Shown: positions 7,490 to 54,693, counted from the first letter of the stretch. The stretch: DNA of 64,000 bases from an uncultured bacterium (GCA_963746775.1 CAVVCK010000001.1:339050-403049); one strand, 5' to 3'. A program made the numbers and translations. Notes: generated by a model from the letters alone, not told the origin.

Positions 7490-7577
7490 AAAATATTTGT
7501 TATTTATACTCAAAATCACAAGAACATTGTGAAAACCCCTCCTACCTCCCCTTGGTAAGGGGAGAATTAAAATTATT

Positions 7578-9548: not shown

Positions 9549-9550
9549 CA

Positions 9551-9582
9551 GAAGTCCAGCTCCCTATAGGGAGCTGGACTTC
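9551..9582 (+). terminator. Perfect 14-bp-stem palindrome (GAAGTCCAGCTCCC TATA GGGAGCTGGACTTC) downstream of the pseudouridine synthase gene; likely terminator
   Basis: Perfect inverted repeat immediately after the stop codon, followed by TTATATT. It shares the CCCTATAGGG centre with family-4 palindromes. Confidence 0.5.
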
Positions 9583-9608
9583 TTATATTAACGATTTAGT
9601 TATTTTTT

Positions 9609-10647: not shown

Positions 10648-10679
10648 GAAATCCGAAACCCTATAGGATTTCGGATTCC
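10648..10679. repeat. Palindrome family 4 (AATCCGAAACCCTATAGGrTTTCGGATT)
   Basis: Near-perfect 32-bp palindrome between the DsbA-like and CcdA-like genes. A second copy is at 54621-54652. Confidence 0.7.
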
Positions 10680-11741: not shown

Positions 11742-12455
11742 TTAAATATTGATCTTGATTTTCTCTAATCTTTCCATTTCTTTTTCTGAAGATTCAATTT
11801 TTCCTTTCAGTTCTTCCCTCTCTCTTGCTGATTGCTCATCTCTTTCTACAATTTTTTCTGCACTACTTTTTAAAACTATAAGCTTTCGCATAACCGCCTT
11901 ACCAGATTCTTTTTCTGCTTTAGTTTTGTTAGCTAAATGTTCCCCGGCTAATTCCACAACCTTTCCCCATTGTTCTAACTCAGCTCTATTCATTTCGATC
12001 TTTCCTTCTATTCCTTCCGCTCGTTGTTTCAGTTCTTCTATGTTTATTCTAACTTCTTCCTTTTTACTATCTAAAAAAGCTTGGGCTATTTCTTGATCAA
12101 TTACATTCCCTCCTTCATCTAAAGCCATACCTACCACTATATCAGCATCATCAACCACATTTGTTGTTAATATCAATTCTTTTAGTGTTTCAATGCTTTT
12201 TTCTTTTGTTTGTCCAGGATATGTCCTGTCAATAAATCTACCTAGGCTATCATCGTTAGAATCTCCTGATCTTCTTCCTAATATTTCTCTCATTTTATCG
12301 CTTGGCCTTCTAGAACTCATTATCACTTTTTTGCGTTTACTTTCTTTTGCTTTTCTTTCTGCAACAAAATCAATTACCTCTTTAAAATAAACCTGAGAAT
12401 CATAATTTTCTCCTCCCTCTCTAGCTCCTTCTGGTATTGGTTTATCAACTGACAT
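11742..12455 (-). CDS. Hypothetical coiled-coil protein
   Basis: E/K-rich C-terminal coiled coil. There is a 11-bp gap to the upstream 439-aa ORF. Confidence 0.5.
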   Translation of the reverse strand: MSVDKPIPEGAREGGENYDSQVYFKEVIDFVAERKAKESKRKKVIMSSRRPSDKMREILGRRSGDSNDDSLGRFIDRTYPGQTKEKSIETLKELILTTNVVDDADIVVGMALDEGGNVIDQEIAQAFLDSKKEEVRINIEELKQRAEGIEGKIEMNRAELEQWGKVVELAGEHLANKTKAEKESGKAVMRKLIVLKSSAEKIVERDEQSAREREELKGKIESSEKEMERLEKIKINI

Positions 12456-12466
12456 ATATTTTTAAA

Positions 12467-13786
12467 TTAATTAATAAATTTTTCTATCTCTTCCTTTGTA
12501 ATATATCCCTTATAAAAATTATCAATAATTAACTTTTCTATAGCTTCCTTTCCAAAATATTCGATAAATATTTTATTCCACATAGCTTCTTGGTGATGAT
12601 ATAAATACTTAATCATTTCCTTTTCTTTAACCAAAGACATCACGCTATCAATCAAATTCATACTGACCAAGCTCTCTATCTCCCCATTTTTTTTTATTAT
12701 TTTATTTTCCATTGTTCCATTAACATGTTTCCCTTCTCCCTTAAAAAAATCACCTACAAAATTTAGATTTTTCCAAAAAGTAAAATCTAAATCAGAATCA
12801 ATAGCATCGAGCTTGGAAATATCATTTTCTGCTTTATCCCAATGAATTGTTTCGGGATTTACGTGTGACTCTATTAATCTAAAATCGTTAGCATTATCTT
12901 TGGCTAAATATCTTTGTACGATTCGCCAACTACCCTGTGGTATATTTTTTTGATCAGAAACATCGCCGCGTAAGGCTGAAATTAATTTTTCTAAAAAATT
13001 TTCTTGTTTGGAATAATTTTCAATAATTTTTGAATAAAAATCAATCTCATGCAAATAATGTAAAAGTAAAGAAAAAACTCTTAAGGTCTCACCAGACGAA
13101 TTAATTTGTAGAGGTATAACAAATATAATTCCCAATTCTTTTAGATGACTGACATTGTGATATTTCTTTTTTATAAATTTCTCTGCTACCTTAAGCCATT
13201 TGTTATTTAAAATCAAAACTTTTATTTCTCGCCTTTCAAAATCTGAGACCTTTATATCACGATACCCCTTACTTAAAAATTCAGTCATCCATTCCTCACT
13301 TTCCACGAAACGCAAAGAAGAATACACTTCGTCAAAATCTTCTTTAGCTAGAAGATCTCCTACGTTTTTATAGCCTAAAGCTTTTATAATATTTTGCGGC
13401 GGATGCTTTTCTAGTATTTCCTTAGCTTTCTCTTTTTTTAAAAAAAACCCATCTCTAATATTAGCTATTTCCTTAGCTTTAGAAATTATTTCCCCGCAAT
13501 GATCCTGCGTTTTACAAGTAGGCTTTCCTAAAATTTCAAAAAGATCACTATCATCATTTTTTAATTTAGAGATTATAGCTCTATATACTTCCTCACTAGA
13601 AGAATTTTTAGAAAGTTTTAAATAACCTAATATTTCTTTAACTTTAAAATCGTTTTCAGCAATTATTTGATCTAAAATGCCAGATGTATCACACATCTTA
13701 TCCAAAGAAAGACAAAGCTTTTGTAAATATTCTGGTTTTGTTCTTAATATTTTAGATATTTTTTCTATCGCGTATAGATGTTCCAT
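12467..13786 (-). CDS. Hypothetical 439-aa protein; start abuts the stop of the PfkB kinase gene
   Basis: Long ORF with no recognisable motif. Confidence 0.55.
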   Translation of the reverse strand: MEHLYAIEKISKILRTKPEYLQKLCLSLDKMCDTSGILDQIIAENDFKVKEILGYLKLSKNSSSEEVYRAIISKLKNDDSDLFEILGKPTCKTQDHCGEIISKAKEIANIRDGFFLKKEKAKEILEKHPPQNIIKALGYKNVGDLLAKEDFDEVYSSLRFVESEEWMTEFLSKGYRDIKVSDFERREIKVLILNNKWLKVAEKFIKKKYHNVSHLKELGIIFVIPLQINSSGETLRVFSLLLHYLHEIDFYSKIIENYSKQENFLEKLISALRGDVSDQKNIPQGSWRIVQRYLAKDNANDFRLIESHVNPETIHWDKAENDISKLDAIDSDLDFTFWKNLNFVGDFFKGEGKHVNGTMENKIIKKNGEIESLVSMNLIDSVMSLVKEKEMIKYLYHHQEAMWNKIFIEYFGKEAIEKLIIDNFYKGYITKEEIEKFIN

Positions 13787-15958: not shown

Positions 15959-15988
15959 AAGTAGGGAACAAAAATTTTTGTTCCTTAC
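15959..15988. repeat. GTAGG-headed palindrome (GTAGGGAACAAAAATTTTTGTTCCTTAC) upstream of gap
   Basis: 14-bp arms with one mismatch. Confidence 0.5.
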
Positions 15989-16132
15989 TAATACATAAAC
16001 AAGGTTTTATAAAAAGTGTAATTTGGGGGAAGCAGCCATCAATTTTTAATAAGCTACGATTATTAGGAAGGTTTGGTTAGTTTTCATACCATTCATTGCC
16101 GCTATTCCGGAAAACAGTAGCCCAACCAATAG

Positions 16133-17210
16133 TTACCGTTTAGAATCTGGTTGGTATTTAGAAATAATTTCAGGCATATTGGCCTGTTTTTTAATTGTTA
16201 ATTCAAGGGGATATTTACCATTTAGATATTTGAATTTCTGACTACAATCAGTATATTTTTTTGTTCTTCTACGGATTAAATAAGCATTAAGAAATCTTTC
16301 AGCATTCTTAAATGATTTGAATCCTTTAATACTTGTTAGTCTAGCGTTTAAATGTGAATTGAATAGTTCTATTAGATTAGTATCTCTAGGACAGTGGGGT
16401 ATATTTTGGTAAGTGAATAGGTTTTCTTCTTTCTTGTAGATATCTATTAGAACACTTTGTCTTAATAAATTCTTTCTCGCATACTTGGTAAATATATTAT
16501 GTAAAGATTTGTTTAATTCTTCTTTAGTTTTTTTCTCCTCTACTTTACTTTTAAAAATATATTCATTAAGCTTGTGAAAAAATAGTAGGTGTTGTTCTTC
16601 CGTCCTTATTCTTGTTTTTTGTCTTATGTTTTCTAGATAATGATTGTGGCAAAGCTGTATTTTGGCTTTAGGATAATAGTACAAAAGCCCTGGTTTTAGG
16701 GCAGGCAGTATATCGTCACAGATAACTACTTGTAGTGGATAGTTACAAGTCTTTAATAATCTAAAGTATCTTCTAAAGGCTTCTTCATTCTCTGAAGGAG
16801 AAAGTATTCCTACAGGAAGATCATGCTTTAGATAATCAATACCGTAAATGAACGGTATTTTTTTATGGTAGCCTTTTACTTTTATGAACTTACCATCAAC
16901 TACAATAACACCTGAGAAGCGATTGCAATAGCTCATTGTTAGCCAAGTGTTATTAGATAAGCTATTCATTTCTTCTTCTACCTGAAGAAAAACTTTAGCA
17001 GGAGATATATTATTCTCATCAGCTAGTTTTCTAAAAGATATTCCATCAACATGTTAAATCCATAACTTTTTCTTTTTACTCCGATGATCAATTGAAAATG
17101 AGCTTTTACATATTTTACAATAATATCTTTTCCTACCATCTCTGCTACCCCATTTAATAGTTCTTTTACTTTTACACTTAGGACACTTTAATTTACGTTT
17201 TTTTTGTCAT
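16133..17210 (-). pseudogene. IS1-family transposase (InsA-like Zn-finger N-terminus plus InsB-like DDE domain), disrupted
   Basis: The 278-aa ORF carries TNLIELFNSHLNARLTSIKGFKSFKNAERFLNAYL (compare IS1 InsB [27 protein letters not shown]...YL). Upstream in the same frame, the reading is continuous across a TAA at 17054-17056. A Zn-finger segment (KLKCPKCKSKRTIKWGSRDGRKRYYCKICKSSF) lies further 5' and is only in frame with the ATG at 17208-17210 if the A8 run at 17198-17205 is read as A7. Confidence 0.65.
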
Positions 17211-22085: not shown

Positions 22086-22457
22086 TTAATTATTTTTATT
22101 TTGGCATTTTTTACAAATACCATATAAATAAATTTGATAATTTTTAACTTTACCTACTTTTACACATTTACAATCCAACTTACAGAATTTTCCAAAAAGA
22201 TCATAAATTTTATTACATTTCTCACAAACAAAATGTCCATGAGGTGAAATATCAGCATCAAAATGTGAGATCTCAGTATTTATTTCACAAATCTCACCCT
22301 TTTCTTTAAAATTTTTTAATATTCTATAAACCGTCCCCTGACTGATCTGAGGTAATTTCTTTTTTACATTTTTATAAACCTCCTCAGCCGAAGGATGAGA
22401 TTCAACGCTCTTTAAATAATCAATGATCACTTTCTTTTGATTGGTTAATCTTTCCAT
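22086..22457 (-). CDS. Fur-family transcriptional regulator, PerR-like
   Basis: Winged-helix N-terminus, HFVCEKC...C metal-site motifs, and placement inside an oxidative-stress gene block. Confidence 0.7.
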   Translation of the reverse strand: MERLTNQKKVIIDYLKSVESHPSAEEVYKNVKKKLPQISQGTVYRILKNFKEKGEICEINTEISHFDADISPHGHFVCEKCNKIYDLFGKFCKLDCKCVKVGKVKNYQIYLYGICKKCQNKNN

Positions 22458-26019: not shown

Positions 26020-26080
26020 ACCTTTGCTTTTTAAGCTACGGTTTACTAAGTAAGGTTAAGATTTAAATAGGTAAGACTCA

Positions 26081-26108
26081 AAAACCCCGCTAATTGCGGG
26101 GTTTTTAT
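26081..26108 (+). terminator. Rho-independent terminator (CCCCGC TAATT GCGGGG TTTTT)
   Basis: GC-rich hairpin plus a T-run downstream of the RRM gene. Confidence 0.8.
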
Positions 26109-27092: not shown

Positions 27093-27114
27093 GTAGGGGC
27101 AGAACAGCCCCTAC
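27093..27114. repeat. Palindrome family 5, short form (GTAGGGGCAGAACAGCCCCTAC)
   Basis: 8-bp GC stem. The long form is at 30004-30032. Confidence 0.6.
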
Positions 27115-27192
27115 GTTAATAGGACTAATTTTCTTTGACTTTTGGACTAATAAAAACTATTATATTGCTACTAGTCTAAGCATATTTTGGAA

Positions 27193-27264
27193 TAGCGAAA
27201 TGAAACGAAGTGGAATTTCGCGCCAAACCACGAACGCGAAATTTCGCTCCGCTACATTTCGCTA
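27193..27264. promoter_or_regulatory. Nested inverted repeats with five ATTTCGC/GCGAAAT motifs immediately upstream of HMG-CoA reductase
   Basis: Outer IR TAGCGAAATG (27193-27202) pairs with CATTTCGCTA (27255-27264). Inner IR GGAATTTCGCG (27212-27222) pairs with CGCGAAATTTCG (27236-27247). Confidence 0.5.
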
Positions 27265-27281
27265 ATCCTTAATAAAAATCC

Positions 27282-28508
27282 ATGAAAAATATACTTAAAA
27301 AATTACAAGAAGGACACATTAAGTTTCACGAAATAGAAAAATATGCCTCAGCCAAAGAAGCATCTGAAATTAGATTACTTTTTATTGAAAAATTAGCTAA
27401 AAATAACTATTCCGAATTAAAAAACTATAATTTAGATCCTAAATTATTACAAAATAAAAATATAGAAAATTTTATAGGCTCAACTGAATTACCCCTAGGA
27501 ATTGCCGGACCGATTAAAGTCAAAGGAGAAAATTCCAATGGAGAATATTTTCTACCACTCGCAACAACCGAAGGCGCACTCGTTGCAAGTGTTAGTAGAG
27601 GCTGTAAAGTTGTAAATTTATCAGGAGGAACAAAAACTGATTTAGAATATATTGGCACCACCAGAGCACCGCTTTTTAGTGTTAAAGATTTAAAAACTGC
27701 CAGAGAATTTATAAATTGGGTTAATAAAAATATTGCTAAACTTAAAGAAGTCGTGGAAAAAGTTGATCCTTTTGTAAAATTAATCAAGATTGAACCATTT
27801 TCTTCCGGAAAAAATATTTGGCTTAGAATATATTTTAATACTTATGACGCTATGGGTATGAATATGGCTACCCAGGCTTCTCAGAAAATAGGAGAATATG
27901 CTGAAAAATATTTTAAATCCGTAAAATTAATTGCTACTTCAGGTAATTTGTGTGTTGATAAAAAAGCAAGTTCCATAAATGCTATCCTTAGCCGCGGCCG
28001 CAAGGTCCAAGCCGAATGTTTTATTAAAAATGAAGTTATAAAAAAATATTTACACACTACCCCAGAAAAATTAGTAGAAGTAAATCACAAAAAAACTTGG
28101 CAAGGAGCAGTTCTCTCTGGCAGCATCGCCGCCAATGCTCATATCGCTAATATTATTGCAGCTATCTTTATTGCCACTGGACAAGATGCCGCTCAATTAG
28201 TTGAATCCAGTTCAGGTAATACTACTTTTGAATTAGACAAAGATGGAGTTTATACTTGCGTCACCCTGCCTTCTTTAATGATCGGCACCGTTGGCGGTGG
28301 CACAGGTTTACCTAAACAAAGTGAAGCTATTAATTTAATGTTAAAGAATATAGGATCGTCCAAAGAAAAATCTAAATTAAATCGTACTAATAAATTAGCA
28401 GAAATTATAGCTAGTGCTTGTCTTGCAGGCGAGATAAGTTTGCATGGAGCCTTGGCTTCTGGACATTTGGCTTCTTCTCATATGAAGTTGGGGAAGGGAT
28501 TTAAATAA
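27282..28508 (+). CDS. hmgA: Hydroxymethylglutaryl-CoA reductase
   Basis: HMGR catalytic-domain motifs (EGALVASVSRGCK, DAMGMNM, GTVGGGT). Confidence 0.85.
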   Translation: MKNILKKLQEGHIKFHEIEKYASAKEASEIRLLFIEKLAKNNYSELKNYNLDPKLLQNKNIENFIGSTELPLGIAGPIKVKGENSNGEYFLPLATTEGALVASVSRGCKVVNLSGGTKTDLEYIGTTRAPLFSVKDLKTAREFINWVNKNIAKLKEVVEKVDPFVKLIKIEPFSSGKNIWLRIYFNTYDAMGMNMATQASQKIGEYAEKYFKSVKLIATSGNLCVDKKASSINAILSRGRKVQAECFIKNEVIKKYLHTTPEKLVEVNHKKTWQGAVLSGSIAANAHIANIIAAIFIATGQDAAQLVESSSGNTTFELDKDGVYTCVTLPSLMIGTVGGGTGLPKQSEAINLMLKNIGSSKEKSKLNRTNKLAEIIASACLAGEISLHGALASGHLASSHMKLGKGFK

Positions 28509-28916
28509 ATGAACAATATTATTGAGATAATTATATCCACTATAATAAGTACTGGAATTATTGCCGGAGTAATTAACTATTGGTTCGACAAAAAACTACG
28601 CACACACGAAATAAAACTTAAAAAATATATCGAATTAATAGAAGAGCTGGCTAAACTTATAGGAAGTGAAGCAAACTGGGATGATTTAAGGCCGCTACTT
28701 AATGAAGCTCTACTTTTTGCTTCCGATAATGTGGTCAAAGAAATATTGAAATTTAATATCCGGTTCAATGATAAAAGTAAAGATGCAAAAGAAGGTAAAT
28801 TTCAAATGACAGAGAAAGATATACAACCTTTAATTATTGCTATACGAGAAGAATTATATTTAAAATCAAAATCTATTAAAGAAAGTGGATTAACATTTTT
28901 TCGAAAAATAAATTGA
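28509..28916 (+). CDS. Hypothetical 135-aa protein (N-terminal TM) inserted between HMGR and HMGS
   Basis: ORF whose start overlaps the hmgA stop (TAAATG). Confidence 0.5.
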   Translation: MNNIIEIIISTIISTGIIAGVINYWFDKKLRTHEIKLKKYIELIEELAKLIGSEANWDDLRPLLNEALLFASDNVVKEILKFNIRFNDKSKDAKEGKFQMTEKDIQPLIIAIREELYLKSKSIKESGLTFFRKIN

Positions 28917-28917
28917 A

Positions 28918-29994
28918 ATGAAACCAAAAAACACCGTCGGCCTAATTTCCTACGGCACCGACATTCCTCAAAATAGAATAAAGATTAAAGATATAGCTCT
29001 CGCTTGGAATAAAGATCCTAAAGCAATAGAAGCTTCTTTAGGTGTGATTGAAAAAGCAATACCTTCTAAAGATGAAGACACTGTAACACTTGCTACTAAT
29101 GCAGCTCTTGAAGCAATGGAAAAATTAAAAAATAAACCAAATATAGGAGCAATTTATACCGGCTCAGAAAGTCATCCTTATGCAGTTAAATCCACTTCCT
29201 CAATAGTCGGTGAAGCCTTAGGTATTGGTAATAATTATACAGCCGCTGACCTAGAGTTTGCTTGCAAGGCTGGAACAGCTGGTGTACAAATGATAACAGG
29301 AATGGTCTCTTCTGGTATGATTGAATACGGAATAGCTATTGGAGCAGACACAGCTCAAAGTAAACCTGGCGATGCACTTGAATACGCTGCCGGTGCCGCC
29401 GGTGCATCATTTATTATTGGATCAAAGAAAGAAGAAATTATCGCTAAAATTTTATATACCGAAAGCTTTACATCCGATACTCCAGACTTCTGGCGCCGAG
29501 AACATCAAGTCTATCCTTCCCACGCTGGCCGCTTCTCCGGAGAGCCTGCGTACTTTAAACATATAATTAGAGCAGTTCAGAATACTTTAAAAAATACCAA
29601 ATCCCGAAGGGTCGCCGGAGAGGCGACAAAAATATCTGATTTTGATCATGTTGTTTTTCATATGCCTAATGCTGCCTTCCCCCGCAAAGCTGCTAAAATC
29701 TTAGGAGTTACAGATAAACAATTACAAGCAGGCTTTATCGGACCATATTTAGGAAATAGCTATTCTGCCTGTTCTTTGGTAGGTTTAGCCTCCGTTCTAG
29801 ACCAAGCTAAACCCAAAGATAAAATATTATTATGCTCATACGGATCAGGTAGTGGCAGTGATTGTTTTGTAATGGAAGTAACAGAGAATATTAAGAAGCT
29901 TAAGAAGACAAAAACAGTTCAAGATAAAATTGATAATAAAGAATATATTAGTTATACAGAATATTTAAAGAATATGGGGAAATTGAAGATGTAA
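28918..29994 (+). CDS. Hydroxymethylglutaryl-CoA synthase (archaeal-type)
   Basis: Active-site Cys context LEFACKAGTAG and the C-terminal SYGSGSG motif. Confidence 0.8.
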   Translation: MKPKNTVGLISYGTDIPQNRIKIKDIALAWNKDPKAIEASLGVIEKAIPSKDEDTVTLATNAALEAMEKLKNKPNIGAIYTGSESHPYAVKSTSSIVGEALGIGNNYTAADLEFACKAGTAGVQMITGMVSSGMIEYGIAIGADTAQSKPGDALEYAAGAAGASFIIGSKKEEIIAKILYTESFTSDTPDFWRREHQVYPSHAGRFSGEPAYFKHIIRAVQNTLKNTKSRRVAGEATKISDFDHVVFHMPNAAFPRKAAKILGVTDKQLQAGFIGPYLGNSYSACSLVGLASVLDQAKPKDKILLCSYGSGSGSDCFVMEVTENIKKLKKTKTVQDKIDNKEYISYTEYLKNMGKLKM

Positions 29995-30003
29995 ACGCTA
30001 GAT

Positions 30004-30032
30004 GTAGGGGCAGAACACTGTTCTGCCCCTAC
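30004..30032. repeat. Palindrome family 5, long form (GTAGGGGCAGAACA CTG TGTTCTGCCCCTAC)
   Basis: Perfect 13-bp arms between HMGS and the thiolase. Confidence 0.7.
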
Positions 30033-30046
30033 AATAAATAAAATCA

Positions 30047-31189
30047 ATGAAAGAAATCTACATAAAAGGCACCGGCCTAACAAAATTCGGTGAAGTTTGG
30101 AATAAAGATTTAAGAGATCTTGCTTTTGAGGCGGGAATAAAAGCTATTAAAGACGCTAAAATTGATTTGCAAGAAATCGATGCTATTTATGTTGCTAATA
30201 TGAAAGCCGGAGAATTCGCCGGACAAGATCACCTGGGAGCCTTAGTTTCAACTATTTTTAATTTAGATATACCAGCTTTCCATATAGAAGCTGCTTGTGC
30301 TTCCGGAGGTGTAGCTATAAACCAAGCCTATCTGAGTTTGCTATCTGGAAAATACAAAAATATCTTAGTCCTTGGAGTTGAGAAAATGACTGACCAAGAT
30401 GCAACCAATACTACTAAAGGATTAGCCGGAGCTGCTGACGAAGAATGGGAAGCACACTACGGCGCAACCTTCCCCTCCCTTTACGCCATGATCGCTCAAG
30501 AACATATGCGTAGATACAAAACCATCAGAAAAGATTTAGCTCTTATCGCTTGTAAAAATCATCACAACGCCACTTTTAATGAATACGCTCAATACCAAAA
30601 AGAAATAACCGTTGATAATGTCTTAAATGCTTCGCCCATCGCTGAACCTTTAGGATTGTTAGATTGCTCCCCTATCACTGATGGTGCTGCAGCAGTTATT
30701 TTGTCAAACAACAGAAAAAGTAAAGTTAAATTAATAGCCTCAGAAGTTACTACCAGTACTCTAGCCCTTCATGATAGAAAAGATATTACAACCCTAGATG
30801 CAGCCATTAAAGCTTCCCAGAAAGCTTATCAGTCCATCAATATTAAACCACAAGATATAGACATAGCCGAAGTACATGATTGTTTTACTATTGCCGAACT
30901 TCTAGCTTATGAAGATTTGGGCTTCTGTAAAAAAGGTGAAGGAGCAAAATTAATCAGATCAGGTAAATTAAATTTAGATGGATCACTACCTATCAATACT
31001 TCCGGTGGACTTAAAGCCTGTGGCCATCCAGTAGGTGCAACTGGTATTAAACAAGTCATAGAAATAGCTACTCAACTAGAAGGTAAAGCTGGAAAACGAC
31101 AAGTTAAGAAAAATTTAAAATACGGGCTAACACATAATATTGGTGGCAGTGGTGCCACAGCTGTAGTAAATATTTTAACCAAATCATAA
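30047..31189 (+). CDS. Archaeal-type thiolase (acetyl-CoA C-acetyltransferase / SCP-x-like)
   Basis: Thiolase fold with catalytic Cys context EAACASGG and the C-terminal GHPVGATG motif. Confidence 0.8.
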   Translation: MKEIYIKGTGLTKFGEVWNKDLRDLAFEAGIKAIKDAKIDLQEIDAIYVANMKAGEFAGQDHLGALVSTIFNLDIPAFHIEAACASGGVAINQAYLSLLSGKYKNILVLGVEKMTDQDATNTTKGLAGAADEEWEAHYGATFPSLYAMIAQEHMRRYKTIRKDLALIACKNHHNATFNEYAQYQKEITVDNVLNASPIAEPLGLLDCSPITDGAAAVILSNNRKSKVKLIASEVTTSTLALHDRKDITTLDAAIKASQKAYQSINIKPQDIDIAEVHDCFTIAELLAYEDLGFCKKGEGAKLIRSGKLNLDGSLPINTSGGLKACGHPVGATGIKQVIEIATQLEGKAGKRQVKKNLKYGLTHNIGGSGATAVVNILTKS

Positions 31190-31587
31190 TGTATAAAGGT
31201 TCATCGCCTAAATCCTGGCGAAAATATAAAACTAAATATAGACTACTGGGCAATCAAGGAACAAAATCAGGTAAAAAATATTATCCACCTGTTTTTGTAT
31301 CTAAAAAAAATCCCTCAGAAAAATTAAAAGAATATAAATTTAAACCAGAAGGAAAATTAATCACTTGGTCTATTGTTCACGGCGCACCTAAGGGCTATGA
31401 AGAATACGCACCCTATATCATTGGTATAATAGAACTAGAAGAGGGTGAACGAATAACCTCTCAAATAGTTAATGTAAAAAAATCACAATTAAAATACGGC
31501 CTTAAATTGAGAGCCGTCTTTAGAAAAATATATCAGGATGGTGATAAGGGAATTATTGATTATGGATTGAAGTTTACTTTAAAATAA
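31189..31587 (+). CDS. DUF35-family OB-fold protein (partner of archaeal thiolase/HMGCS complex); Zn-ribbon cysteines absent
   Basis: Start overlaps the thiolase stop (ATAATG). OB-fold-like core (GKLITWSIV...YIIGIIELEEGERITSQI). Confidence 0.55.
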   Translation: MYKGSSPKSWRKYKTKYRLLGNQGTKSGKKYYPPVFVSKKNPSEKLKEYKFKPEGKLITWSIVHGAPKGYEEYAPYIIGIIELEEGERITSQIVNVKKSQLKYGLKLRAVFRKIYQDGDKGIIDYGLKFTLK

Positions 31588-31671
31588 AATTAACAATCAT
31601 AAAAAGAGGCTAAACTTTTTTAAGTCTGAGTCTCTTTTTTATTCTTAATTTTTATTTCCTATTTTAAATTA

Positions 31672-33594
31672 TTAGTTCACACCATGCCAGTTTTCTATAA
31701 CTGCAATCCCTACTCCATTTCGAAGGGTAGGATCACCAAAAGCAAAGAAATTAGGAGTCGGTCTGAGGATACCTGAAGGCTCATAACCTAAGATATGAGG
31801 ACCATTAGAGCCTATAGGAGAAATAAGTAACTCTTGGGCTTCATCGGCAGGATCCAATTGAGCTGCTCGAATAGTAAAGTCTCCTCTAACTTGTTCTTCA
31901 TAGACCCACCAGAAATTCTTTCTTTCTCCCTCTTTGTCAAAGGCGTTTACTTGGGAAGAACCGTTATTAGGAGTAGTGTAGATCCTTTCTCCGGCACCGA
32001 CAGCAGTTAAACCTTGATTAATAGCTGTTTCATAAGCTAGAAAATGATTATACAATAATGACCCATCTGCTTTGTAAATATAGACGTAGGGATCAGCCGG
32101 ACCATGATTAGGGGTAACTAATATTTCATCAGCTCCATCATTGTATTGGAAAGTACCTAAATTACAGCCTACATCTTGAAAGGGTGCTTCAAATTCAGCA
32201 GACTTTACCCAGTTATCTATACCTGATACATCGGTATAAACTCGGACCAAAGGAGCCCTGTCACCAGTTAGACAAAAAGCAGCATCATCTTGAAAACCAT
32301 CATTATCAAAATCTCCTGATGTGGCCGATAATCCATCTCTAATAGATGAATCAAAGACAAACATTTGACCTAAAGAAGATAAAGAACTATCTTCTTTTAA
32401 CCCACGAACAAGAGCTTGAGGACCACCATTATTAATAGCAAATAATAAAAATTGATCTAAAACACCATTATTATTCTGATCTATAGGAATAATCCCTGCT
32501 CCACCTAGATATGATTCGGGAAAAAGATCGGTAATATCTTCTTCTAATAAAGAATTACTGCCATCCGTAGTTGCTTTGGAGTAAGCTTGAAGACGAGTTG
32601 GTTCGCCAGGACCAGAGGTTGTAAGAATTTTGGGAGAAATAGTTAGCCCTTCCGTCTCAGATTTTTCTTCGTCGGATTGTTCAGTGTTTGTAGCTACAAA
32701 ATAAGTGGCATGATCAACCGTAAAACTACATTGCTCCTCACTTACAGTACATTCAGTTTCATTGGCCCAAGCCTCCCCACCTTCTTCAAGTGACTGGATT
32801 CGCAAAGTCATACCTTCATATCCTGAACCAACATTTAGAGAAACAGTAACATTTTTACTAAAATTAAGGTTTAAACCAGGAATTCCTAATCTAATAGCTA
32901 AAACAGGATCACCTATTATATTAGTCGAAGGCAGATTATCAATATCGACAACCTGATTAACCATTCTATAAAATTCAAAGCTCCCTCCTTCACTACGTGT
33001 TACCACAGTATCTACAGGAAAAGTTACCGTCGTTCTATTTGAGCTAAATTCCCATTCTTCCTCAATAGTAACATTTGATGACTCGGCAGTATTAGCAATA
33101 GTTACCCCTTTAGCATCCGGTAGAGCAGCAAGTTCCTCAGGGGTATACCACTTTTGATTATTAAGCCTATCAGAAACAAGAAACCAGCCCACTTCCCAAA
33201 TCCCCACTTTAGACCATCTCGGAATAGTTGCTGTACCAGTATAAGTTCCAGATTTATCATCGCCCGAAACTCTTGTAATCTCAAAACTAGTATACTGCGT
33301 CCCAATCAACGCCTTTATAGCCAACCAAGGAGGACTTCCAACCTGAGTACCATCCCAATCACAGTCGTCATAGACACAAACCCCCGAAAGGTCATCAGAA
33401 ATAACAGCTTCAAAGGTAAGAGTTTGAGCGCTATCAGAAGTATTGATTTCTGCCGGCATTATACTAAATGACTCTATAACCGGAGGTGTTCGATCTTCTT
33501 CTGCCTTAACTTTCGGCACATTTATTGATAAAGTCAGAGAACAAAATACAATCATCAAAGCAACTACAATCAAATTACTTACTACTTTTTTCAT
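31672..33594 (-). CDS. Large secreted protein with FG-GAP/VCBS-like repeats
   Basis: Signal peptide and the motif SGDFDNDGFQDD. Confidence 0.5.
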   Translation of the reverse strand: MKKVVSNLIVVALMIVFCSLTLSINVPKVKAEEDRTPPVIESFSIMPAEINTSDSAQTLTFEAVISDDLSGVCVYDDCDWDGTQVGSPPWLAIKALIGTQYTSFEITRVSGDDKSGTYTGTATIPRWSKVGIWEVGWFLVSDRLNNQKWYTPEELAALPDAKGVTIANTAESSNVTIEEEWEFSSNRTTVTFPVDTVVTRSEGGSFEFYRMVNQVVDIDNLPSTNIIGDPVLAIRLGIPGLNLNFSKNVTVSLNVGSGYEGMTLRIQSLEEGGEAWANETECTVSEEQCSFTVDHATYFVATNTEQSDEEKSETEGLTISPKILTTSGPGEPTRLQAYSKATTDGSNSLLEEDITDLFPESYLGGAGIIPIDQNNNGVLDQFLLFAINNGGPQALVRGLKEDSSLSSLGQMFVFDSSIRDGLSATSGDFDNDGFQDDAAFCLTGDRAPLVRVYTDVSGIDNWVKSAEFEAPFQDVGCNLGTFQYNDGADEILVTPNHGPADPYVYIYKADGSLLYNHFLAYETAINQGLTAVGAGERIYTTPNNGSSQVNAFDKEGERKNFWWVYEEQVRGDFTIRAAQLDPADEAQELLISPIGSNGPHILGYEPSGILRPTPNFFAFGDPTLRNGVGIAVIENWHGVN

Positions 33595-33749
33595 TTTTAT
33601 AAATTAATTATTAAAAATAAAAAACCCGCATTAAAAAATACAGGTATCAATTAATCAAATCTATATAAACTTTTTTCATTTTGTTTTAATTTGTTTTTTT
33701 ATTATAGCATGAAAATATTATTTAACCAAATTATTTTTCGAGACTCCCT

Positions 33750-34739
33750 CTATCTAGTAATATTCACCCTATAAAAATCCATTTTATTCTCTTTTAAAAA
33801 ATTTTCTATCTTCTCCTGATCCCCACCAAAACAAATCAAAGCTCCACTCCCTTCACCTTTATGCGCTCCCGCCCCAGATACCTTTGTATGACCACCTAAA
33901 TTACTCAGATCATTAATTAACTTTTGCGTCTTAGAAGTTACAATCCCTAAATCAATTAGTTCTTCTCCTGCCATATCTATAATTTTATAAAATTTTTCTT
34001 TGTTATCTTCCTCCAAGGCATCAATTAAATCGTAAGTTAATTTTTCTAAATTCTTAAATATTTTCCCTGCTTTAGCAGGATCTTTTTTAATATTATTTTT
34101 AACAAATTCAACTACCTCGCCAGTCAAAGCTTCCGGATTTCCAGAATTTATTATTAAAATGTCATTCAAAATATCTGACTCTATTTCTAATTTCTCATAA
34201 TCAAATCCCTCTTTCTTCTTCCGATATTTCATCAACCCTCCATAAATTATAGCAATTTGATCTAGTCCACTGGACTTGTAACCATGAAATTTAGTCTCCA
34301 CTTCCATGGCAATCTTAAACAAATCTTCTTTGTTCAATTCTTTTTTAAAATTTTTTGATAAAGCCTTAGCCATGCTCACAATAACGCTAGTCGATACTCC
34401 GCATCCTCCAAGAGGTGCTTCTTTTTCAATCTCTATCACTATTGGTTGAACATCCTTAACCTTTAAATATTTTAAAACTACGTTTAAGCTAATTTTAAAA
34501 AGTTTATCCCTCTTATTATTATATTTAAAACTATCTCCTAGCTTTAAAATTTCTTTAATATTATATTCGCCCCTATAATTGTTCTCTTTGTCCTCAACAA
34601 TAATCATTTCTCCATTAAAAAGCTTAACTTCACAATAACAATACATATTTATCGCACAAACTAAAGCAGGCTTACCATACACAACACTATGCTCTCCTAT
34701 TAAAATTATTTTTGTTGGGGATTTTTCTCTTATAGGCAT
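33750..34739 (-). CDS. GHMP-family kinase, probable mevalonate kinase
   Basis: GHMP ATP-binding motif (APLGGCGVSTSV) and genomic proximity to HMGR/HMGS. Confidence 0.6.
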   Translation of the reverse strand: MPIREKSPTKIILIGEHSVVYGKPALVCAINMYCYCEVKLFNGEMIIVEDKENNYRGEYNIKEILKLGDSFKYNNKRDKLFKISLNVVLKYLKVKDVQPIVIEIEKEAPLGGCGVSTSVIVSMAKALSKNFKKELNKEDLFKIAMEVETKFHGYKSSGLDQIAIIYGGLMKYRKKKEGFDYEKLEIESDILNDILIINSGNPEALTGEVVEFVKNNIKKDPAKAGKIFKNLEKLTYDLIDALEEDNKEKFYKIIDMAGEELIDLGIVTSKTQKLINDLSNLGGHTKVSGAGAHKGEGSGALICFGGDQEKIENFLKENKMDFYRVNITR

Positions 34740-34741
34740 TG

Positions 34742-35491
34742 TTATATCTTTATTTCCATTAAATCTTTTGCCAAAACAATTTCCCCTTTAAATTCTTTTG
34801 CTGCTTCTTTTTTTATATTAATTTTTTCTACTTCTGGATAAAAATGAGTTAGAACTAATTTTTTCACATTAGCTTTATTCCCAATTTCCCCTGCCTGACT
34901 TGGAGTTAAGTGTCCGTCAAATTTAGTAGGCAGAGCTGCCTCAATTAAAAGTAAATTTGTATTTTTGGATAAATCTATAATATTTTTACAAGGACCAGTA
35001 TCACCAGCTATTACTACTGATTTATTATTATCTTTAAATCGATAAGCTGCTGTATTCATCCCTGGAACATGCTTTAAATATTTCACCCTAACTTTTCCAA
35101 AAGAAAATTTCTTAGATGCTTCGCTCATTTCGAAAACTTTTACGAATTTTATTTTCTTTAATAAACCAAAGGCTAATAGATATTTATTATAAAATTCCTT
35201 AAATCCCTTTGGTCCGATAATATTTAAAGTTTTTCTAGTTACACCCCATAATTCATCTACATAATATAGTTGTAAATAGACAATAAGATCAGACACGTGA
35301 TCAGGATGAATGTGGGTAATAAAAATATAATTTATTTTTTTATAATCAAAACCTGCATTATTGAAATTATTAAAAGTACCACAACCCATATCAACTAAAA
35401 TATTTTCTCTACCAATAGATAGAACATAACCTGGACTTTTTCTCTTTGGATTCGGCATACATGTACCTGAACCTAGGATTGTTAATTTCAT
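34742..35491 (-). CDS. MBL-fold metallo-hydrolase
   Basis: HxHxDH motif ITHIHPDHVSD. Confidence 0.75.
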   Translation of the reverse strand: MKLTILGSGTCMPNPKRKSPGYVLSIGRENILVDMGCGTFNNFNNAGFDYKKINYIFITHIHPDHVSDLIVYLQLYYVDELWGVTRKTLNIIGPKGFKEFYNKYLLAFGLLKKIKFVKVFEMSEASKKFSFGKVRVKYLKHVPGMNTAAYRFKDNNKSVVIAGDTGPCKNIIDLSKNTNLLLIEAALPTKFDGHLTPSQAGEIGNKANVKKLVLTHFYPEVEKINIKKEAAKEFKGEIVLAKDLMEIKI

Positions 35492-35504: not shown

Positions 35505-35545
35505 TTTTTTTGTACGTAGTACCGGCCTCTCCAGGCCGGTACACA
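35505..35545. repeat. GTAG-headed GC palindrome (GTAGTACCGGCC TCTCCA GGCCGGTAC)
   Basis: 9-bp GC-rich stem in an AT-rich spacer upstream of the MBL gene. Confidence 0.5.
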
Positions 35546-35827
35546 TTATTCACCAAACGAACTAATATCTATTTTTTTCAAATCATTTGGTTCTTTATTC
35601 AAACATAATTACCCAAGCATAATATGCAAAATGGAATTTATTTTTATAAAAATTTAAATTTTCTAAAATAATTTTACACAAAATTTGATCTTTAAAATAA
35701 GGGATTCTCTTATATGTACAAAAAGTTAAGAAATATATTTTTTTATTTAAAATTAATCTCAGTGGATGCATATATCTCATTAGCATACCAACCCTGGGGG
35801 GGTTGCTACTACGAAAACAAATAATAT

Positions 35828-48531: not shown

Positions 48532-49302
48532 TTACTTTTTATCTTTTTTCTTTCTATTTAAAGGACTTCTAAATAAATTTAAAATCAATAAAACAATACT
48601 TCCAATAAAAAAATATTTAGTATACTTATAAATCTCTCTATAAATATCTTCTTTCTTTTTAATTATTTCAAAATCAGTCAAATATACCACTTCGCAGGCA
48701 TTATTACCTGTATCTAACCTAGTAGTGCTTGTACTGCGCTTAAATTGTCCGTCATTAGCAGAATATTCCACTAAATATCCTTTGAAATGAATTTGATCCC
48801 CTATCTCTACCGACATAATTTTTTTAGCAATTTCTTCATTATCAGCTAGCAAATGATTATTAGACAAATGACTAAAAGAAAATTTAGATTGTACTTCCTG
48901 TCCTGCTCCATTTTTACTTTCCATATAGCAAGTCCAGCTACCGCTTTTAAATTTCATTTGCTTATAAACTTCTGTATCAATATTACTCCCCCAAATAACA
49001 CAAACATCTTTCAAATTAATAAAATCATTCCATGCTTTATGATAATAGTCCCACCATTTATTGGCATTATGATAAGTTACCACTAAGCCATAAAGCTCAT
49101 AACTAGTTATTGGTTTTATATTATAAGTAACATCGCCTACCCTTTTTTCAAAAGACTCTTTGTCAGTATGCTCTTGTATCGGCTCCTGGAATAGCCTCTC
49201 ATCAATTTCTCCTTTCTCTGGTAATTGATCTTTTAGAAAATATGAAGTAATTAAAATAATAATGCTGAGCAGTAGAATAATTTGTAATATTCTTTTAAAC
49301 AT
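48532..49302 (-). CDS. Hypothetical membrane-anchored/secreted protein
   Basis: ORF with an N-terminal TM and a C-terminal TM plus basic tail. Confidence 0.5.
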   Translation of the reverse strand: MFKRILQIILLLSIIILITSYFLKDQLPEKGEIDERLFQEPIQEHTDKESFEKRVGDVTYNIKPITSYELYGLVVTYHNANKWWDYYHKAWNDFINLKDVCVIWGSNIDTEVYKQMKFKSGSWTCYMESKNGAGQEVQSKFSFSHLSNNHLLADNEEIAKKIMSVEIGDQIHFKGYLVEYSANDGQFKRSTSTTRLDTGNNACEVVYLTDFEIIKKKEDIYREIYKYTKYFFIGSIVLLILNLFRSPLNRKKKDKK

Positions 49303-49463: not shown

Positions 49464-50783
49464 TTGAAAACCATTACCGAAAAACTAAAAAAAAATCAAG
49501 GATGGATCCTTGTTATTCTACTCTCTATCATCCCCTTCCTGCTTTGGCTCACTACTTCTAAGCTTGATCCTCCCCTAGAAAATATTAAAACCCTTAGCGC
49601 TAGTTTAGGTGAAATATTAGGACTAACAGGTATTGTTTTGTTGTCACTAAATTTTATACTTGCTTCCCGCCTGCCTTTCATCGAAAAATTATTTTACGGA
49701 CTCAATAATGTTTACAAACAACATAACACAATAGGCCAACTGGCTTTTATTTTTTTACTTTTTCATCCTCTGCTGCTTATCGCCCGCTACGCAACTAATT
49801 CTACTGAGGCAGCTAAATTTTTATTGCCAAGCCAAATTTGGTCACGCGATTATGGCAATATTGCTCTTGGTGTAATGATTATATTAATTATTCTAACTCT
49901 TTACCTACAACCAAAATACAATATCTGGAAAATAACTCATAAATTTTTTGGTCTAGCTATTTTATTCGGTTCTCTCCATGCCTATTCAATTCCCGGATAT
50001 GTTATGAAAAATTTCTTTCTTAAAGGTTACATTATAATTATTACCCTGTTAGGAATTACCGCTTTCCTATATAAAGTTATTTTTGAAAAATTTTTATTAA
50101 AAAAATATAAATACCAAGTAGAAGAAATAAAAAAACTTAATGACTTCATCATTGAAATTACTCTCAAGCCTCTAGATAAAAAAATTAATTTTAGGCCCGG
50201 TCAATTTGTTTTTATTTCTTTTAATCAGAGAGGATTATCCAAAGAAAGTCATCCCTTTTCTATCACTTCTGCACCTTGGGAAAACAATTTGAAATTAGCT
50301 ACCAAAAAGCTTGGCGATTATACTAGCAATCTGCCTTATGATTTAGAGAAAGGCGCTCTCGCTCAAATAGAAGGACCTTTTGGAGTTTTTTCCTATACTA
50401 ATATCAATAATCAAAATCAAATTTGGATTGCCGGAGGTATTGGCATTACTCCTTTTATTAGCATGGCCAAGGATTTGCTAAATCAAAATTATCCTTATCA
50501 TATTCAATTATTTTATTGTACAAAGGATGAAAAAGAAGCTATCTATTTAGATTTTTTAAAGGAAATTCAGGCTAAATTTAGTAATAATTTTCAAGTTATT
50601 CCTTTTTTATCAAATACTAATGGCCATATTAATTTTGAAAAAATTAATAATTTAGTTACCAATCTACGTAGTAAAGATATATTAATTTGCGCCCCGCCAG
50701 TTATGATAAATGCCCTAAAAAATGATTTTATAAATCATGGATTAAATAAGGATAAGATGCATTCAGAAGAGTTTAATTTCTAA
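49464..50783 (+). CDS. Ferric-reductase-like transmembrane oxidoreductase (FRE/NOX family) with FAD/NAD(P)-binding domain
   Basis: Multi-TM heme domain with conserved His, HPFSI FAD motif, and GGIGITP NAD-binding motif. Confidence 0.75.
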   Translation: MKTITEKLKKNQGWILVILLSIIPFLLWLTTSKLDPPLENIKTLSASLGEILGLTGIVLLSLNFILASRLPFIEKLFYGLNNVYKQHNTIGQLAFIFLLFHPLLLIARYATNSTEAAKFLLPSQIWSRDYGNIALGVMIILIILTLYLQPKYNIWKITHKFFGLAILFGSLHAYSIPGYVMKNFFLKGYIIIITLLGITAFLYKVIFEKFLLKKYKYQVEEIKKLNDFIIEITLKPLDKKINFRPGQFVFISFNQRGLSKESHPFSITSAPWENNLKLATKKLGDYTSNLPYDLEKGALAQIEGPFGVFSYTNINNQNQIWIAGGIGITPFISMAKDLLNQNYPYHIQLFYCTKDEKEAIYLDFLKEIQAKFSNNFQVIPFLSNTNGHINFEKINNLVTNLRSKDILICAPPVMINALKNDFINHGLNKDKMHSEEFNF

Positions 50784-50789
50784 AAAACT

Positions 50790-51209
50790 ATGAAAAAAGT
50801 AACACTAATACTATTAATGATTTTCTTCGCCGTAAGCGGTTTAATATTTATTTTGGGATCTCTGAACCGTCAAAATAATTCTAATACTGCTCTTAACCAA
50901 AACACGATTATTAATACTAATAGCTCATCTCAAACTAACACTTCTCCTACCACAAATACCCCCACCACAAATTCAACACCAACTTTTACGCTAGCTGATA
51001 TTTCAAGCCATAACATTAGAAGTAATTGTTACCTGGCTATCAATAACAATGTCTATGATGTTTCTTCTTACATTAGCTTTCATCCTGGCGGATCAAGTTC
51101 TATTACTTCAAATTGTGGAAAAGAAGTAACCGGAATATTCAGCAGAATTCATTCTAATAGAGCTTGGGATTTGCTGGCTAAATATAAAATAGGAGTTCTT
51201 AGTAATTAA
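50790..51209 (+). CDS. Secreted/anchored cytochrome b5-like heme-binding domain protein
   Basis: HPGG motif in a cyt-b5 fold, adjacent to the FRE gene. Confidence 0.75.
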   Translation: MKKVTLILLMIFFAVSGLIFILGSLNRQNNSNTALNQNTIINTNSSSQTNTSPTTNTPTTNSTPTFTLADISSHNIRSNCYLAINNNVYDVSSYISFHPGGSSSITSNCGKEVTGIFSRIHSNRAWDLLAKYKIGVLSN

Positions 51210-51947: not shown

Positions 51948-52310
51948 ATGCCAGAAACACCACCAGAAAATAGACCAAATGAACAAATTGAAAAATCAAA
52001 AGAAATAAATCTTGCAGAATTAAGTTTTGAGGAATTAGAGAAATTACTTAAAGAAACTAAAGAATTAGCTAGAAAAACATTTAAACAAGTAGAAAATGGA
52101 TTTGTTAACGCTAAAGGAGAGGGTATTTATATTGGTAAAGTATATGATCAATATAAAATAAGTGAAGCCTCTAAATCAATACCTGAATTTCATCGTTTTC
52201 TAGAAAATAATACTAATCCAATCTTAACCAGAGGTTCTTCTAATAAAGAAGAAATGATGCAAGCATTAAAAGAAATGATTGAGGAGTTAGAATTTAGAAT
52301 AATTAAATAA
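51948..52310 (+). CDS. Hypothetical 120-aa protein
   Basis: ORF only. Confidence 0.45.
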   Translation: MPETPPENRPNEQIEKSKEINLAELSFEELEKLLKETKELARKTFKQVENGFVNAKGEGIYIGKVYDQYKISEASKSIPEFHRFLENNTNPILTRGSSNKEEMMQALKEMIEELEFRIIK

Positions 52311-54568: not shown

Positions 54569-54620
54569 AAAATAGAGATTAGAAATTAGTTATCAAATTT
54601 CCATACACCAATTATAAAAA

Positions 54621-54652
54621 GGAATCCGAAACCCTATAGGGTTTCGGATTCC
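54621..54652. terminator. Palindrome family 4 (perfect 32-bp GGAATCCGAAACCCTATAGGGTTTCGGATTCC) between convergent genes; probable bidirectional terminator
   Basis: Perfect 15-bp stem. Second copy at 10648-10679. Confidence 0.6.
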
Positions 54653-54693
54653 TGCATCAAATTTCTTTAGTTTTCAACAATTTAACAATTTAT

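Follow-up and report, generated by a model that had tools for sequence, protein, structure and literature searches.

The question raised by the locus studied here is how an archaeal-style mevalonate module came to stand on the chromosome of a bacterium, and what is to be made of the cysteine-free DUF35 protein, the small inserted gene and the palindrome found within its operon. The locus comprises positions 27,282 to 34,739 of a stretch of 64,000 nucleotides (nt) from an uncultured bacterium (GCA_963746775.1 CAVVCK010000001.1:339050-403049), and this whole stretch is referred to as the window. Encoded on the plus strand are 3-hydroxy-3-methylglutaryl coenzyme A (HMG-CoA) reductase (HMGR, gene hmgA), a predicted membrane protein of 135 amino acids (aa), HMG-CoA synthase (HMGS), an acetoacetyl-CoA thiolase (AACT) and a DUF35 protein, followed by a GHMP kinase gene on the minus strand. 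Very probably, this is the upper mevalonate operon of a bacterium of the Candidate Phyla Radiation (CPR, Patescibacteria), inherited within the CPR and overlaid by lineage-specific inserts.

Open reading frames (ORFs) were located by a six-frame list, and families were assigned at curated profile cutoffs. Every ORF coordinate given in an earlier reading of the window, made from the sequence alone (the sequence-only reading; five ORFs on the plus and two on the minus strand), was reproduced by this list (Table 1). Relatives were collected by a single-protein HMGS scan of 185,579 GTDB species representatives, which returned at least 209 relatives, 80 of which were kept. For close comparison, the syntenic metagenomic relatives L085/L086 and L087, the latter a sister genome, were used.

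Identity and ancestry of the mevalonate operon

The gene identities proposed by the sequence-only reading (HMGR, HMGS, thiolase, DUF35 protein and GHMP kinase) were confirmed by the curated profiles, for which scores are given here followed by the respective cutoff. HMGR passed PF00368 (391; 27) and scored 402 with the class I profile TIGR00533 (442) and 64 with the class II profile TIGR00532 (260). HMGS passed the archaeal profile TIGR00748 HMG_CoA_syn_Arc (419; 353) as well as NF003274 (461; 244) and stayed below the bacterial-type profile TIGR01835 (143; 360). Thresholds were likewise exceeded by the thiolase (NF004720: 518; 420, and also PF22691 and PF00108), which reached 493 with NF053570 AcCoTHIOL_METTL (600), and by the DUF35 protein (PF01796: 60; 27). 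A failure of these two calls at their cutoffs, named beforehand as a refutation, therefore did not occur. The kinase passed PF00288 (55; 22), and the mevalonate kinase profile TIGR00549 was clearly its top family (155; 163), the runner-up GHMP family scoring 45. All 11 of its PDB matches were mevalonate kinases (best 72 bits), and the position of its gene is kept in L085 and L087.

A thiolase/HMG-CoA synthase/DUF35 channeling complex was reportedly described by Vogeli et al. in PNAS in 2018 from Methanothermococcus thermolithotrophicus (PDB 6ESQ/6ET9). The archaeal type attributed to the window's enzymes was upheld by the solved structures: best matches were the subunits of this complex, namely 6esq_I for HMGS (398 bits, with PhlA at 202 and Enterococcus and Staphylococcus HMGS at about 75), 6esq_A for the thiolase (370 bits vs 102 for PhlC) and 6esq_E for the DUF35 protein (E 6e-25), and for HMGR the HMG-CoA reductase entry 6HR7 (329 bits). 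The gene order of the trio is the same. The HMGS motifs GSESHPY, EFACKAG, VFHMPN and YLGNSYS, which hold the E-C-H-N tetrad, align with identical residues in 6esq_I, as do the thiolase motifs EAACASG (CAS), EVHDCF (HDCF) and ACGHPVGATG (GHP) in 6esq_A; the DUF35 protein is collinear with its counterpart over the full length and retains the OB fold and the N-terminal segment. Unlike the methanogen system, the window combines a bacterial host, a DUF35 protein devoid of zinc ligands, HMGR upstream in the same operon and an interruption of that operon by a foreign 135-aa gene and a palindrome, and its complex is a predicted one.

HMGS-like, thiolase-like and DUF35 subunits are also joined in the bacterial PhlABC/MucABC acyltransferases (PDB 5M3K, 9VBO; PMC12960953), and PhlA, PhlB and PhlC were the second-best solved-structure matches for HMGS and DUF35. 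That the trio of the window is a repurposed enzyme of this type, or a thiolase scaffold serving another CoA pathway (polyhydroxyalkanoate or fatty-acid-like synthesis), is nevertheless extremely unlikely. According to the same 2026 study, the E-C-H-N tetrad and the CxS/HDxF/GHx residues distinguish mevalonate complexes from PhlABC/MucABC, in which the tetrad and HDxF are lost, the zinc ribbon is kept and neither HMGR nor mevalonate kinase (MVK) is a neighbour. Membership in the Phl/Muc group was rejected because the HMGS tetrad and the thiolase HDxF are both intact in the window; moreover, the archaeal complex scored two- to three-fold above Phl (398 vs 202 and 370 vs 102 bits). Intact motifs, HMGR directly upstream and a mevalonate-kinase-like gene on the downstream side make a mevalonate function much the best interpretation.

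As a mevalonate operon, the locus would be driven by one conserved promoter serving hmgA and the genes of HMGS, AACT and DUF35, with the mevalonate kinase gene convergent downstream. A sigma-70-like candidate (Table 1), from which transcription may start, has its hexamers and much of its spacer kept in all three syntenic genomes (window, L085 and L087). The DUF35 protein would, by homology to the solved complex of M. thermolithotrophicus, bridge thiolase and synthase, and acetoacetyl-CoA from the unfavourable thiolase step would be used at once by HMGS; HMGR and the kinase would then yield phosphomevalonate, with the subsequent steps placed outside the window.

The host is a bacterium, as the sequence-only reading had it, because the window encodes a bacterial set comprising trigger factor, ClpP, RNase Y, YmdB, a LytR-CpsA-Psr protein and an S11 D-Ala-D-Ala carboxypeptidase; glycolytic enzymes and oxidative-stress proteins are encoded as well. 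Sequence comparison places this host among the CPR/Patescibacteria. Its nearest HMGS among the GTDB species representatives is that of a Candidatus Dojkabacteria metagenome-assembled genome (63% identity), followed by those of Saccharibacteria, DPANN archaea and Methanosarcinales (52-55%) and then of Planctomycetota and bacteria of the Fibrobacteres-Chlorobi-Bacteroidetes (FCB) group (45-51%). Among homologues of the 135-aa protein and of the DUF35 protein, source labels such as 'Patescibacteria group bacterium' and 'Candidatus Dojkabacteria bacterium' are found.

An archaeal-style module had been regarded as unusual for a bacterium, and this view was not sustained. The gene set was already reported from CPR bacteria by Hoshino and Gaucher in 2018 (PMC6107057), and the trio is syntenic in dozens of bacterial lineages: the HMGS-thiolase-DUF35 order is kept in nearly all of the 80 related loci, many of them from non-CPR bacteria, and is present in Ignavibacteria, Zixibacteria, Planctomycetota, KSB1, TA06, Eisenbacteria, Gemmatimonadota and Aminicenantes. 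In PMC6107057, CPR bacteria, with Dojkabacteria among the named carriers, are described as having an archaeal AACT that replaces thiolase II, together with mostly clustered genes for HMGS, HMGR-I and MVK near archaeal sequences; the CPR enzymes are mostly monophyletic, and those of the early steps are congruent with the CPR species tree. The window agrees in the AACT, in HMGS and HMGR-I close to archaeal sequences, in MVK, in clustering and in belonging to a separate CPR clade. It differs in being devoid of later-step genes (PMVK, DPMD, IDI-I, IPK), and the paper in turn mentions neither DUF35 (0 occurrences) nor decay of a zinc ribbon nor operon insertions. The locus is a CPR-type, archaeal-like upper mevalonate operon with the trio, of a kind already described and largely ordinary. 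Modestly new are the series of DUF35 ribbon decay and its frequency, the variable HMGR-HMGS junction and the litter of REP/RAYT-like elements (introduced below), by which the expected mechanism is unchanged.

In a neighbour-joining tree of HMGS and thiolase (723 columns), the window grouped with L087 and L085, then with Dojkabacteria and then with Saccharimonadales, and the resulting CPR clade was separate from the archaeal clades and from a large bacterial clade of FCB and Planctomycetes-Verrucomicrobia-Chlamydiae members. Of the archaeal affinity that had been proposed for phylogenetic examination, the archaeal type of the enzymes stood, and the window itself fell into an ordinary CPR clade. 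A recent archaeal transfer is not supported because the module sits in that clade. Recent horizontal acquisition from an archaeon such as a DPANN or methanogen neighbour, in place of an heirloom of the CPR, would agree with the archaeal type of all four enzymes, with DPANN and Methanosarcinales HMGS sequences as close as those of Saccharibacteria (54-55% identity), with a module G+C content (0.34-0.38) slightly over the window mean of 32%, and with the case made for an archaeal origin of bacterial mevalonate genes generally (PMC11052028). It is very unlikely all the same, given a clade that unites the window, its two syntenic relatives, Dojkabacteria and Saccharimonadales outside the archaeal clades, an HMGR-HMGS-thiolase-DUF35 order and chromosomal neighbours conserved in the relatives, and the mostly monophyletic CPR enzymes with species-tree-congruent early steps of PMC6107057. 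A clear foreign signature was absent when the composition of the module was examined against that of the window. The arrangement would accordingly be one handed down within the CPR and not a recent archaeal import. An ancient transfer into the CPR ancestor is a separate claim, with which these results are compatible. Whether the mevalonate pathway goes back to the last universal common ancestor, to the archaeal stem or to transfer into bacteria is under debate, with CPR sequences in a central place (PMC6107057, PMC11052028); the locus adds one more well-preserved CPR operon and cannot settle inheritance against acquisition in the CPR ancestor.

The DUF35 protein and its zinc ribbon

The loss of all zinc-ribbon cysteines noticed in the sequence-only reading proved correct and extends to the whole protein, which contains no Cys at all. 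In an end-to-end alignment with 6esq_E, the four zinc ligands are replaced by Gly, Ser, Ser and Asn (the fourth position being Asn or a gap, depending on the alignment), and a search of the protein with PF12172 gave no match. The ribbon has decayed by replacement of all four cysteines. Among the DUF35 proteins of the syntenic GTDB loci, 67 of 73 retain the four cysteines. At both other CPR loci (Dojkabacteria and Saccharimonadales), the ribbon of about 30 residues is deleted, and the N-terminal SWR...Y segment and the OB fold are kept. Relatives at 83-89% identity are all free of cysteine at full length, and most of those at 49-61% identity retain CxxC...CxxC, the exceptions being the Dojkabacteria-labelled proteins P0057 and P0058, which are cysteine-free at full length; in a further relative (P0056), the ribbon is deleted.

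To see how frequent such variants are, 1.84 billion cluster representatives were searched exhaustively with phmmer, and the best 150 were classified. Four cysteines were present in 103 of these 150. A ribbon-length segment without any Cys was found in 9, a short form of about 100 aa with the N-terminal Trp and without the ribbon in 18, and one to three of the four cysteines in 11; another 9 were short forms that lacked both ribbon and N-terminus and may be truncated. Because the ribbon is incomplete in about a fifth to a quarter of these nearest representatives, the cysteine-poor DUF35 protein was regarded as a recurrent variant.

An AlphaFold2 model of the protein (predicted local distance difference test, pLDDT, 80) had 6esq_E as its top fold match (template modelling score 0.76-0.79). 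Two ribbon strands are seen in this model, but its input alignment includes cysteine-bearing homologues. The zinc ribbon is probably dispensable for bridging by DUF35 in this clade, since it is lost or deleted in the CPR clade as well as in the said fraction of the nearest clusters, and a zinc-free complex may accordingly form. A metal-free, shorter DUF35 scaffold may be of help to metabolic engineers who work with the archaeal complex.

The inserted 135-aa gene and the palindromes

An overlap of hmgA with the 135-aa gene had been read from the sequence TAAATG. It is in fact an abutment with a spacer of 0 nt, the hmgA stop codon occupying 28506-28508 and the ATG following at 28509; the distance from the stop of the 135-aa gene to the HMGS ATG is 1 nt. 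A true overlap of 1 nt (TAATG) is found at the junction of thiolase stop and DUF35 start. The insert consists of exactly the 408-nt ORF, with no flanking non-coding DNA and a host-like G+C content of 0.28. Its product has 41 database homologues (48-100% identity) of near-constant length with strongly conserved motifs, and was modelled by AlphaFold2 (pLDDT 87) as an all-helical protein in which a helical bundle comes after an N-terminal transmembrane helix. No match was obtained in Pfam, NCBIfam, PHROG or PADLOC, nor a significant fold match in the PDB. On homology and model together, the product is a real, CPR-specific, membrane-anchored helical protein.

The closest relatives (L085/L086, L002, L003 and L015) lack the gene in their orthologous operons. 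Without it, hmgA and the HMGS gene are 1 nt apart in L085/L086, overlap in Dojkabacteria and Saccharimonadales, and are separated by 15 nt in a second Saccharibacteria locus. The junction of L087 is occupied by an ORF of 198 aa with an N-terminal hydrophobic helix (7058-7654, plus strand); homology of this ORF with the 135-aa family was considered and rejected (hhalign probability 1.3%). Flanking genes and promoter are common to the window, L085/L086 and L087; every spacer and this junction differ. PHROG and PADLOC scans of both junction ORFs gave nothing significant, which leaves a role in phages or in defence unsupported. Elsewhere, six contexts of the family were found: after groEL, by thioredoxin or DsbD genes, after a RelA/SpoT gene, among NYN, PIN and small unknown ORFs, and near phosphate-transport genes. 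No mevalonate gene lies near any of the six, and the seven contexts, the window included, have no neighbour in common.

The sequence-only reading had taken the gene arrangement as a sign of translational coupling and of a role in the pathway. The abutting stop and start codons are compatible with coupling, which is probable, and are uninformative on function; the pathway role did not hold up against the gene's absence from orthologous operons, the non-homologous ORF in L087 and the unrelated contexts of the homologues. For these same reasons, the gene was interpreted as a passenger at a variable junction, likely to be co-transcribed: the 408-nt gene would have been inserted precisely between hmgA stop and HMGS start. 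The finding of two different ORFs suggests that the HMGR-HMGS junction repeatedly gains small membrane-protein genes. Together with the hairpins described below, the variable junction illustrates that even a tightly packed essential operon of a reduced genome gathers passenger DNA.

It is decidedly improbable that the 135-aa protein works in the pathway, for instance by tethering or regulating the soluble HMGR or the thiolase/HMGS complex, with coupling to set the stoichiometry. Such a role would fit the 0-nt and 1-nt spacers, the conserved and well-folded product with its predicted transmembrane helix, and the presence, at this place in the sister genome L087, of another small ORF for which a transmembrane helix is predicted. 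It is at odds with the lack of the gene in the operons of L085/L086, Dojkabacteria and both Saccharibacteria loci, with the contexts of the other homologues (6/6 without a mevalonate gene), with the non-homology of the L087 ORF and with the lack of any fold or family tie to isoprenoid enzymes. A wider proposal would combine two parts: that CPR bacteria use a minimal, zinc-free thiolase/HMGS channeling complex bridged only by the SWR...Y segment and the OB fold, its reduction being recorded in the series from cysteine-free to deleted ribbon, and that the HMGR-HMGS junction is a preferred site for small membrane-protein genes, the 135-aa family having been recruited to keep the soluble complex at the membrane, the place of prenyl carrier synthesis. 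This combination was considered speculative and quite unlikely.

Independent of the operon, homologues of the 135-aa protein were observed beside a TIR-domain gene on one contig (L083, 9010-9969, minus strand) and within small unknown ORFs that include a PIN-domain gene on another (L208, 3743-7316), which hints at variable accessory islands.

Repetitive extragenic palindromic (REP) elements with REP-associated tyrosine transposases (RAYT; Y1/HUH, IS200/IS605-like) are known from Proteobacteria. The palindrome noticed between the HMGS and thiolase genes was verified as perfect, and the REP-like character ascribed to it is seen in its GTAG head, GC-rich hairpin and intergenic site. Its folding free energy is -25.6 kcal/mol (z-score -6.9). 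The motif GTAGGGGCAGAAC occurs in both arms, at 30004, and in one arm at 27093, i.e. three arms against 0.5 expected, and a count of perfect GC-rich hairpins with a stem of 9 bp or longer gave five across the window (about 0.1 in shuffles), 5/5 of them intergenic. In L085 and L087, the orthologous spacers lack the palindrome and hold other GC-rich hairpins, and in L085 the region between the inositol monophosphatase (IMPase) gene and hmgA contains a different GTAG...CTAC hairpin doublet. A scan of metagenome contigs for GTAGGGGCAGAACA gave at least 120 single matches attributable to chance and one that was palindromic (L119, a terminator hairpin on an unrelated contig); the scan was uninformative on copy number.

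A further palindromic element of 90-125 nt lies between promoter and ATG in the window and in L085 (6160-6280). It is absent from L087, where the ATG follows the -10 box at about 18 nt and the mRNA would be nearly leaderless; because it is missing there, the element was interpreted as an indel and not as a conserved regulatory RNA. Only tRNAs were detected by Rfam over the window at gathering thresholds, so the leader hairpin is no known riboswitch.

A remnant of a Y1/HUH transposase gene was identified 5.5 kb downstream of the intra-operon palindrome, 78% identical (tblastn) to a PF01797 protein of 174 aa that is encoded intact at the syntenic site of L085 (13333-13857). GTAG/CTAC-bracketed hairpins (GTAGTACCGGCCTCTC...) stand on either side of the intact gene, a further copy lies upstream of hmgA in L085, and the window retains the remnant-flanking hairpins at 35516-35542 and about 35790-35815. 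These flanking hairpins differ in sequence family from the intra-operon palindrome. The label 'REP-like' is a fair one because GTAG/CTAC hairpins around a Y1 transposase gene follow the REP/RAYT pattern. Shared with REP/RAYT systems are short, GC-rich, GTAG-headed palindromes in intergenic and intercistronic spacers and a Y1 gene that is hairpin-flanked in L085 and a remnant in the window; unlike them, the window shows the transposase flanked by hairpins of another family, a local gene truncated before HUH, and two loci of the exact family within 64 kb. REP-like palindromes linked to the decayed RAYT-like gene would have settled upstream of hmgA, in its leader and between the HMGS and thiolase genes. 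They may be mobile, and may act at the mRNA level on stability or on the expression ratio of the operon halves.

A selected regulatory element in place of a selfish REP-like insertion, for example a stem-loop that serves mRNA stability or processing, or an attenuator controlling the ratio of HMGR/HMGS to thiolase/DUF35, is an unlikely explanation of the intra-operon palindrome. The very stable stem and its exact placement in the intercistronic spacer would suit such a function, and the other GC-rich hairpins in the orthologous spacers of L085 and L087 suggest that structure is tolerated or favoured there. Against this stand a sequence that is not conserved in close relatives, a sequence-related copy outside the operon, and GTAG-headed hairpins that flank a RAYT-like gene in the lineage and occur at non-orthologous sites. 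No U-tract adjoins the palindrome on either strand, which argues against a canonical terminator. Both readings could hold at once.

Other hairpins and mobile-element traces were seen in the window. A second family of intergenic perfect or near-perfect palindromes, centred on CCCTA/TAGGG, is represented at 9550-9583, 10650-10677, 54620-54653 and 15960-15989, and two of its members have AATCCGAAACCCTA in common. At 26080-26106, after the gene of an RRM RNA-binding protein, AAAAACCCCGC-TAATT-GCGGGGTTTTT looks like a bidirectional intrinsic terminator. An ORF of 278 aa (16133-16969, minus strand) weakly matches the C-terminal part of the Mutator-family transposase PF00872 (positions 203-369 of 379) and is probably another decayed mobile-element gene.

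Weight of the combined interpretation and further features of the window

Several points weigh against the interpretation of the locus as a CPR mevalonate operon with a zinc-free complex, a passenger gene and REP-like insertions. Two equivalog-level profiles narrowly miss their cutoffs, TIGR00533 for HMGR and TIGR00549 for the kinase. Genes of the later mevalonate steps (PMVK, DPMD/MPD, IPK, IDI) were not found in a Pfam scan of the ORFs of at least 110 aa across the 64 kb of the window, and the neighbour-joining tree carries no support values. Structurally characterised DUF35 proteins all bind zinc (PMC6996347), which makes the scaffold function of a cysteine-free form an extrapolation. The 135-aa gene is packed between its neighbours in the manner of a coupled operon member, and the 64 kb of the window contain no more than two loci of the intra-operon palindrome's own family.

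Table 1. Position of genes and sequence elements at and around the mevalonate locus, counted from the first nucleotide of the window
Feature	Position	Strand	Remarks
GTAG-headed GC-rich hairpin GTAGGGGCAGAACAGCCCCTAC, short copy of the intra-operon family	27093-27114		IMPase-hmgA intergenic region
Sigma-70-like promoter TTGACT-17 nt-TATTAT, likely operon promoter	27135-27163	+	10/12 matches
Palindromic element in the hmgA 5' leader, ending 7 nt before the ATG	27183-27274	+	-42.5 kcal/mol, z-score -7.3
hmgA, class I (NADPH-type) HMG-CoA reductase, soluble catalytic domain only	27282-28508	+	408 aa; PF00368 391 bits
135-aa accessory gene, predicted N-terminal transmembrane helix and helical bundle	28509-28916	+	CPR-restricted family
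Archaeal-type HMG-CoA synthase, E-C-H-N tetrad intact	28918-29994	+	358 aa; TIGR00748
Perfect 15+15 palindrome TGTAGGGGCAGAACA-C-TGTTCTGCCCCTACA (14-bp stem and 3-nt loop as RNA)	30003-30033		52-nt HMGS-thiolase spacer
Archaeal-type acetoacetyl-CoA thiolase (AACT), CxS/HDxF/GHx motifs	30047-31189	+	380 aa; NF004720
DUF35 protein: N-terminal SWRxxxxxY segment, degenerate Cys-free ribbon segment, OB fold	31189-31587	+	132 aa; PF01796
Secreted protein, variable insert between DUF35 and kinase	31672-33594	-	640 aa; FG-GAP_3 below cutoff
Kinase of the GHMP family, most likely a mevalonate kinase, convergent to the operon	33750-34739	-	329 aa; PF00288, TIGR00549
Metallo-beta-lactamase (MBL)-fold hydrolase (RNase Z/cyclic-nucleotide phosphodiesterase-like), upstream of the kinase	34742-35491	-	249 aa; PF12706, PF00753
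GTAG-headed hairpin GTAGTACCGGCCTCTCCAGGCCGGTAC flanking the transposase remnant	35516-35542		same sequence flanks the intact Y1 gene in L085
Y1/HUH RAYT-like transposase remnant, first 58 codons, stop just before the HUH motif	35598-35771	-	tblastn

Between DUF35 and kinase, the gene of a secreted protein (G+C content 0.39 vs 0.32 for the window) would have come to separate the two; nothing is inserted at this place in L085, an unknown ORF of 565 aa is found there in L087, and the secreted protein is not part of the mevalonate pathway. The MBL-fold hydrolase, named in the sequence-only reading beside the kinase, passes the thresholds of PF12706 and PF00753. A link with the pathway did not hold: the gene is missing from the syntenic L087, a different ORF stands between it and the kinase gene in L085, and the product resembles RNase Z or cyclic-nucleotide phosphodiesterases.

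Farther from the locus, a FUR-family ORF lies at 22086-22457, as taken from the existing annotation of the matching contig L001. Five ORFs of 120-439 aa without a Pfam family were found at 11742-13786, 1862-2563 and 48532-49302 (minus strand) and at 51948-52310 (plus strand); two of them (237 and 439 aa) adjoin each other directly downstream of a PfkB kinase gene. At 49464-51209 (plus strand), a cytochrome b5-like protein comes after a transmembrane NAD/FAD oxidoreductase that resembles ferric reductases, and a gene of the F420-0:gamma-glutamyl ligase family lies at 52321-53040, a redox set unusual for a reduced CPR genome.

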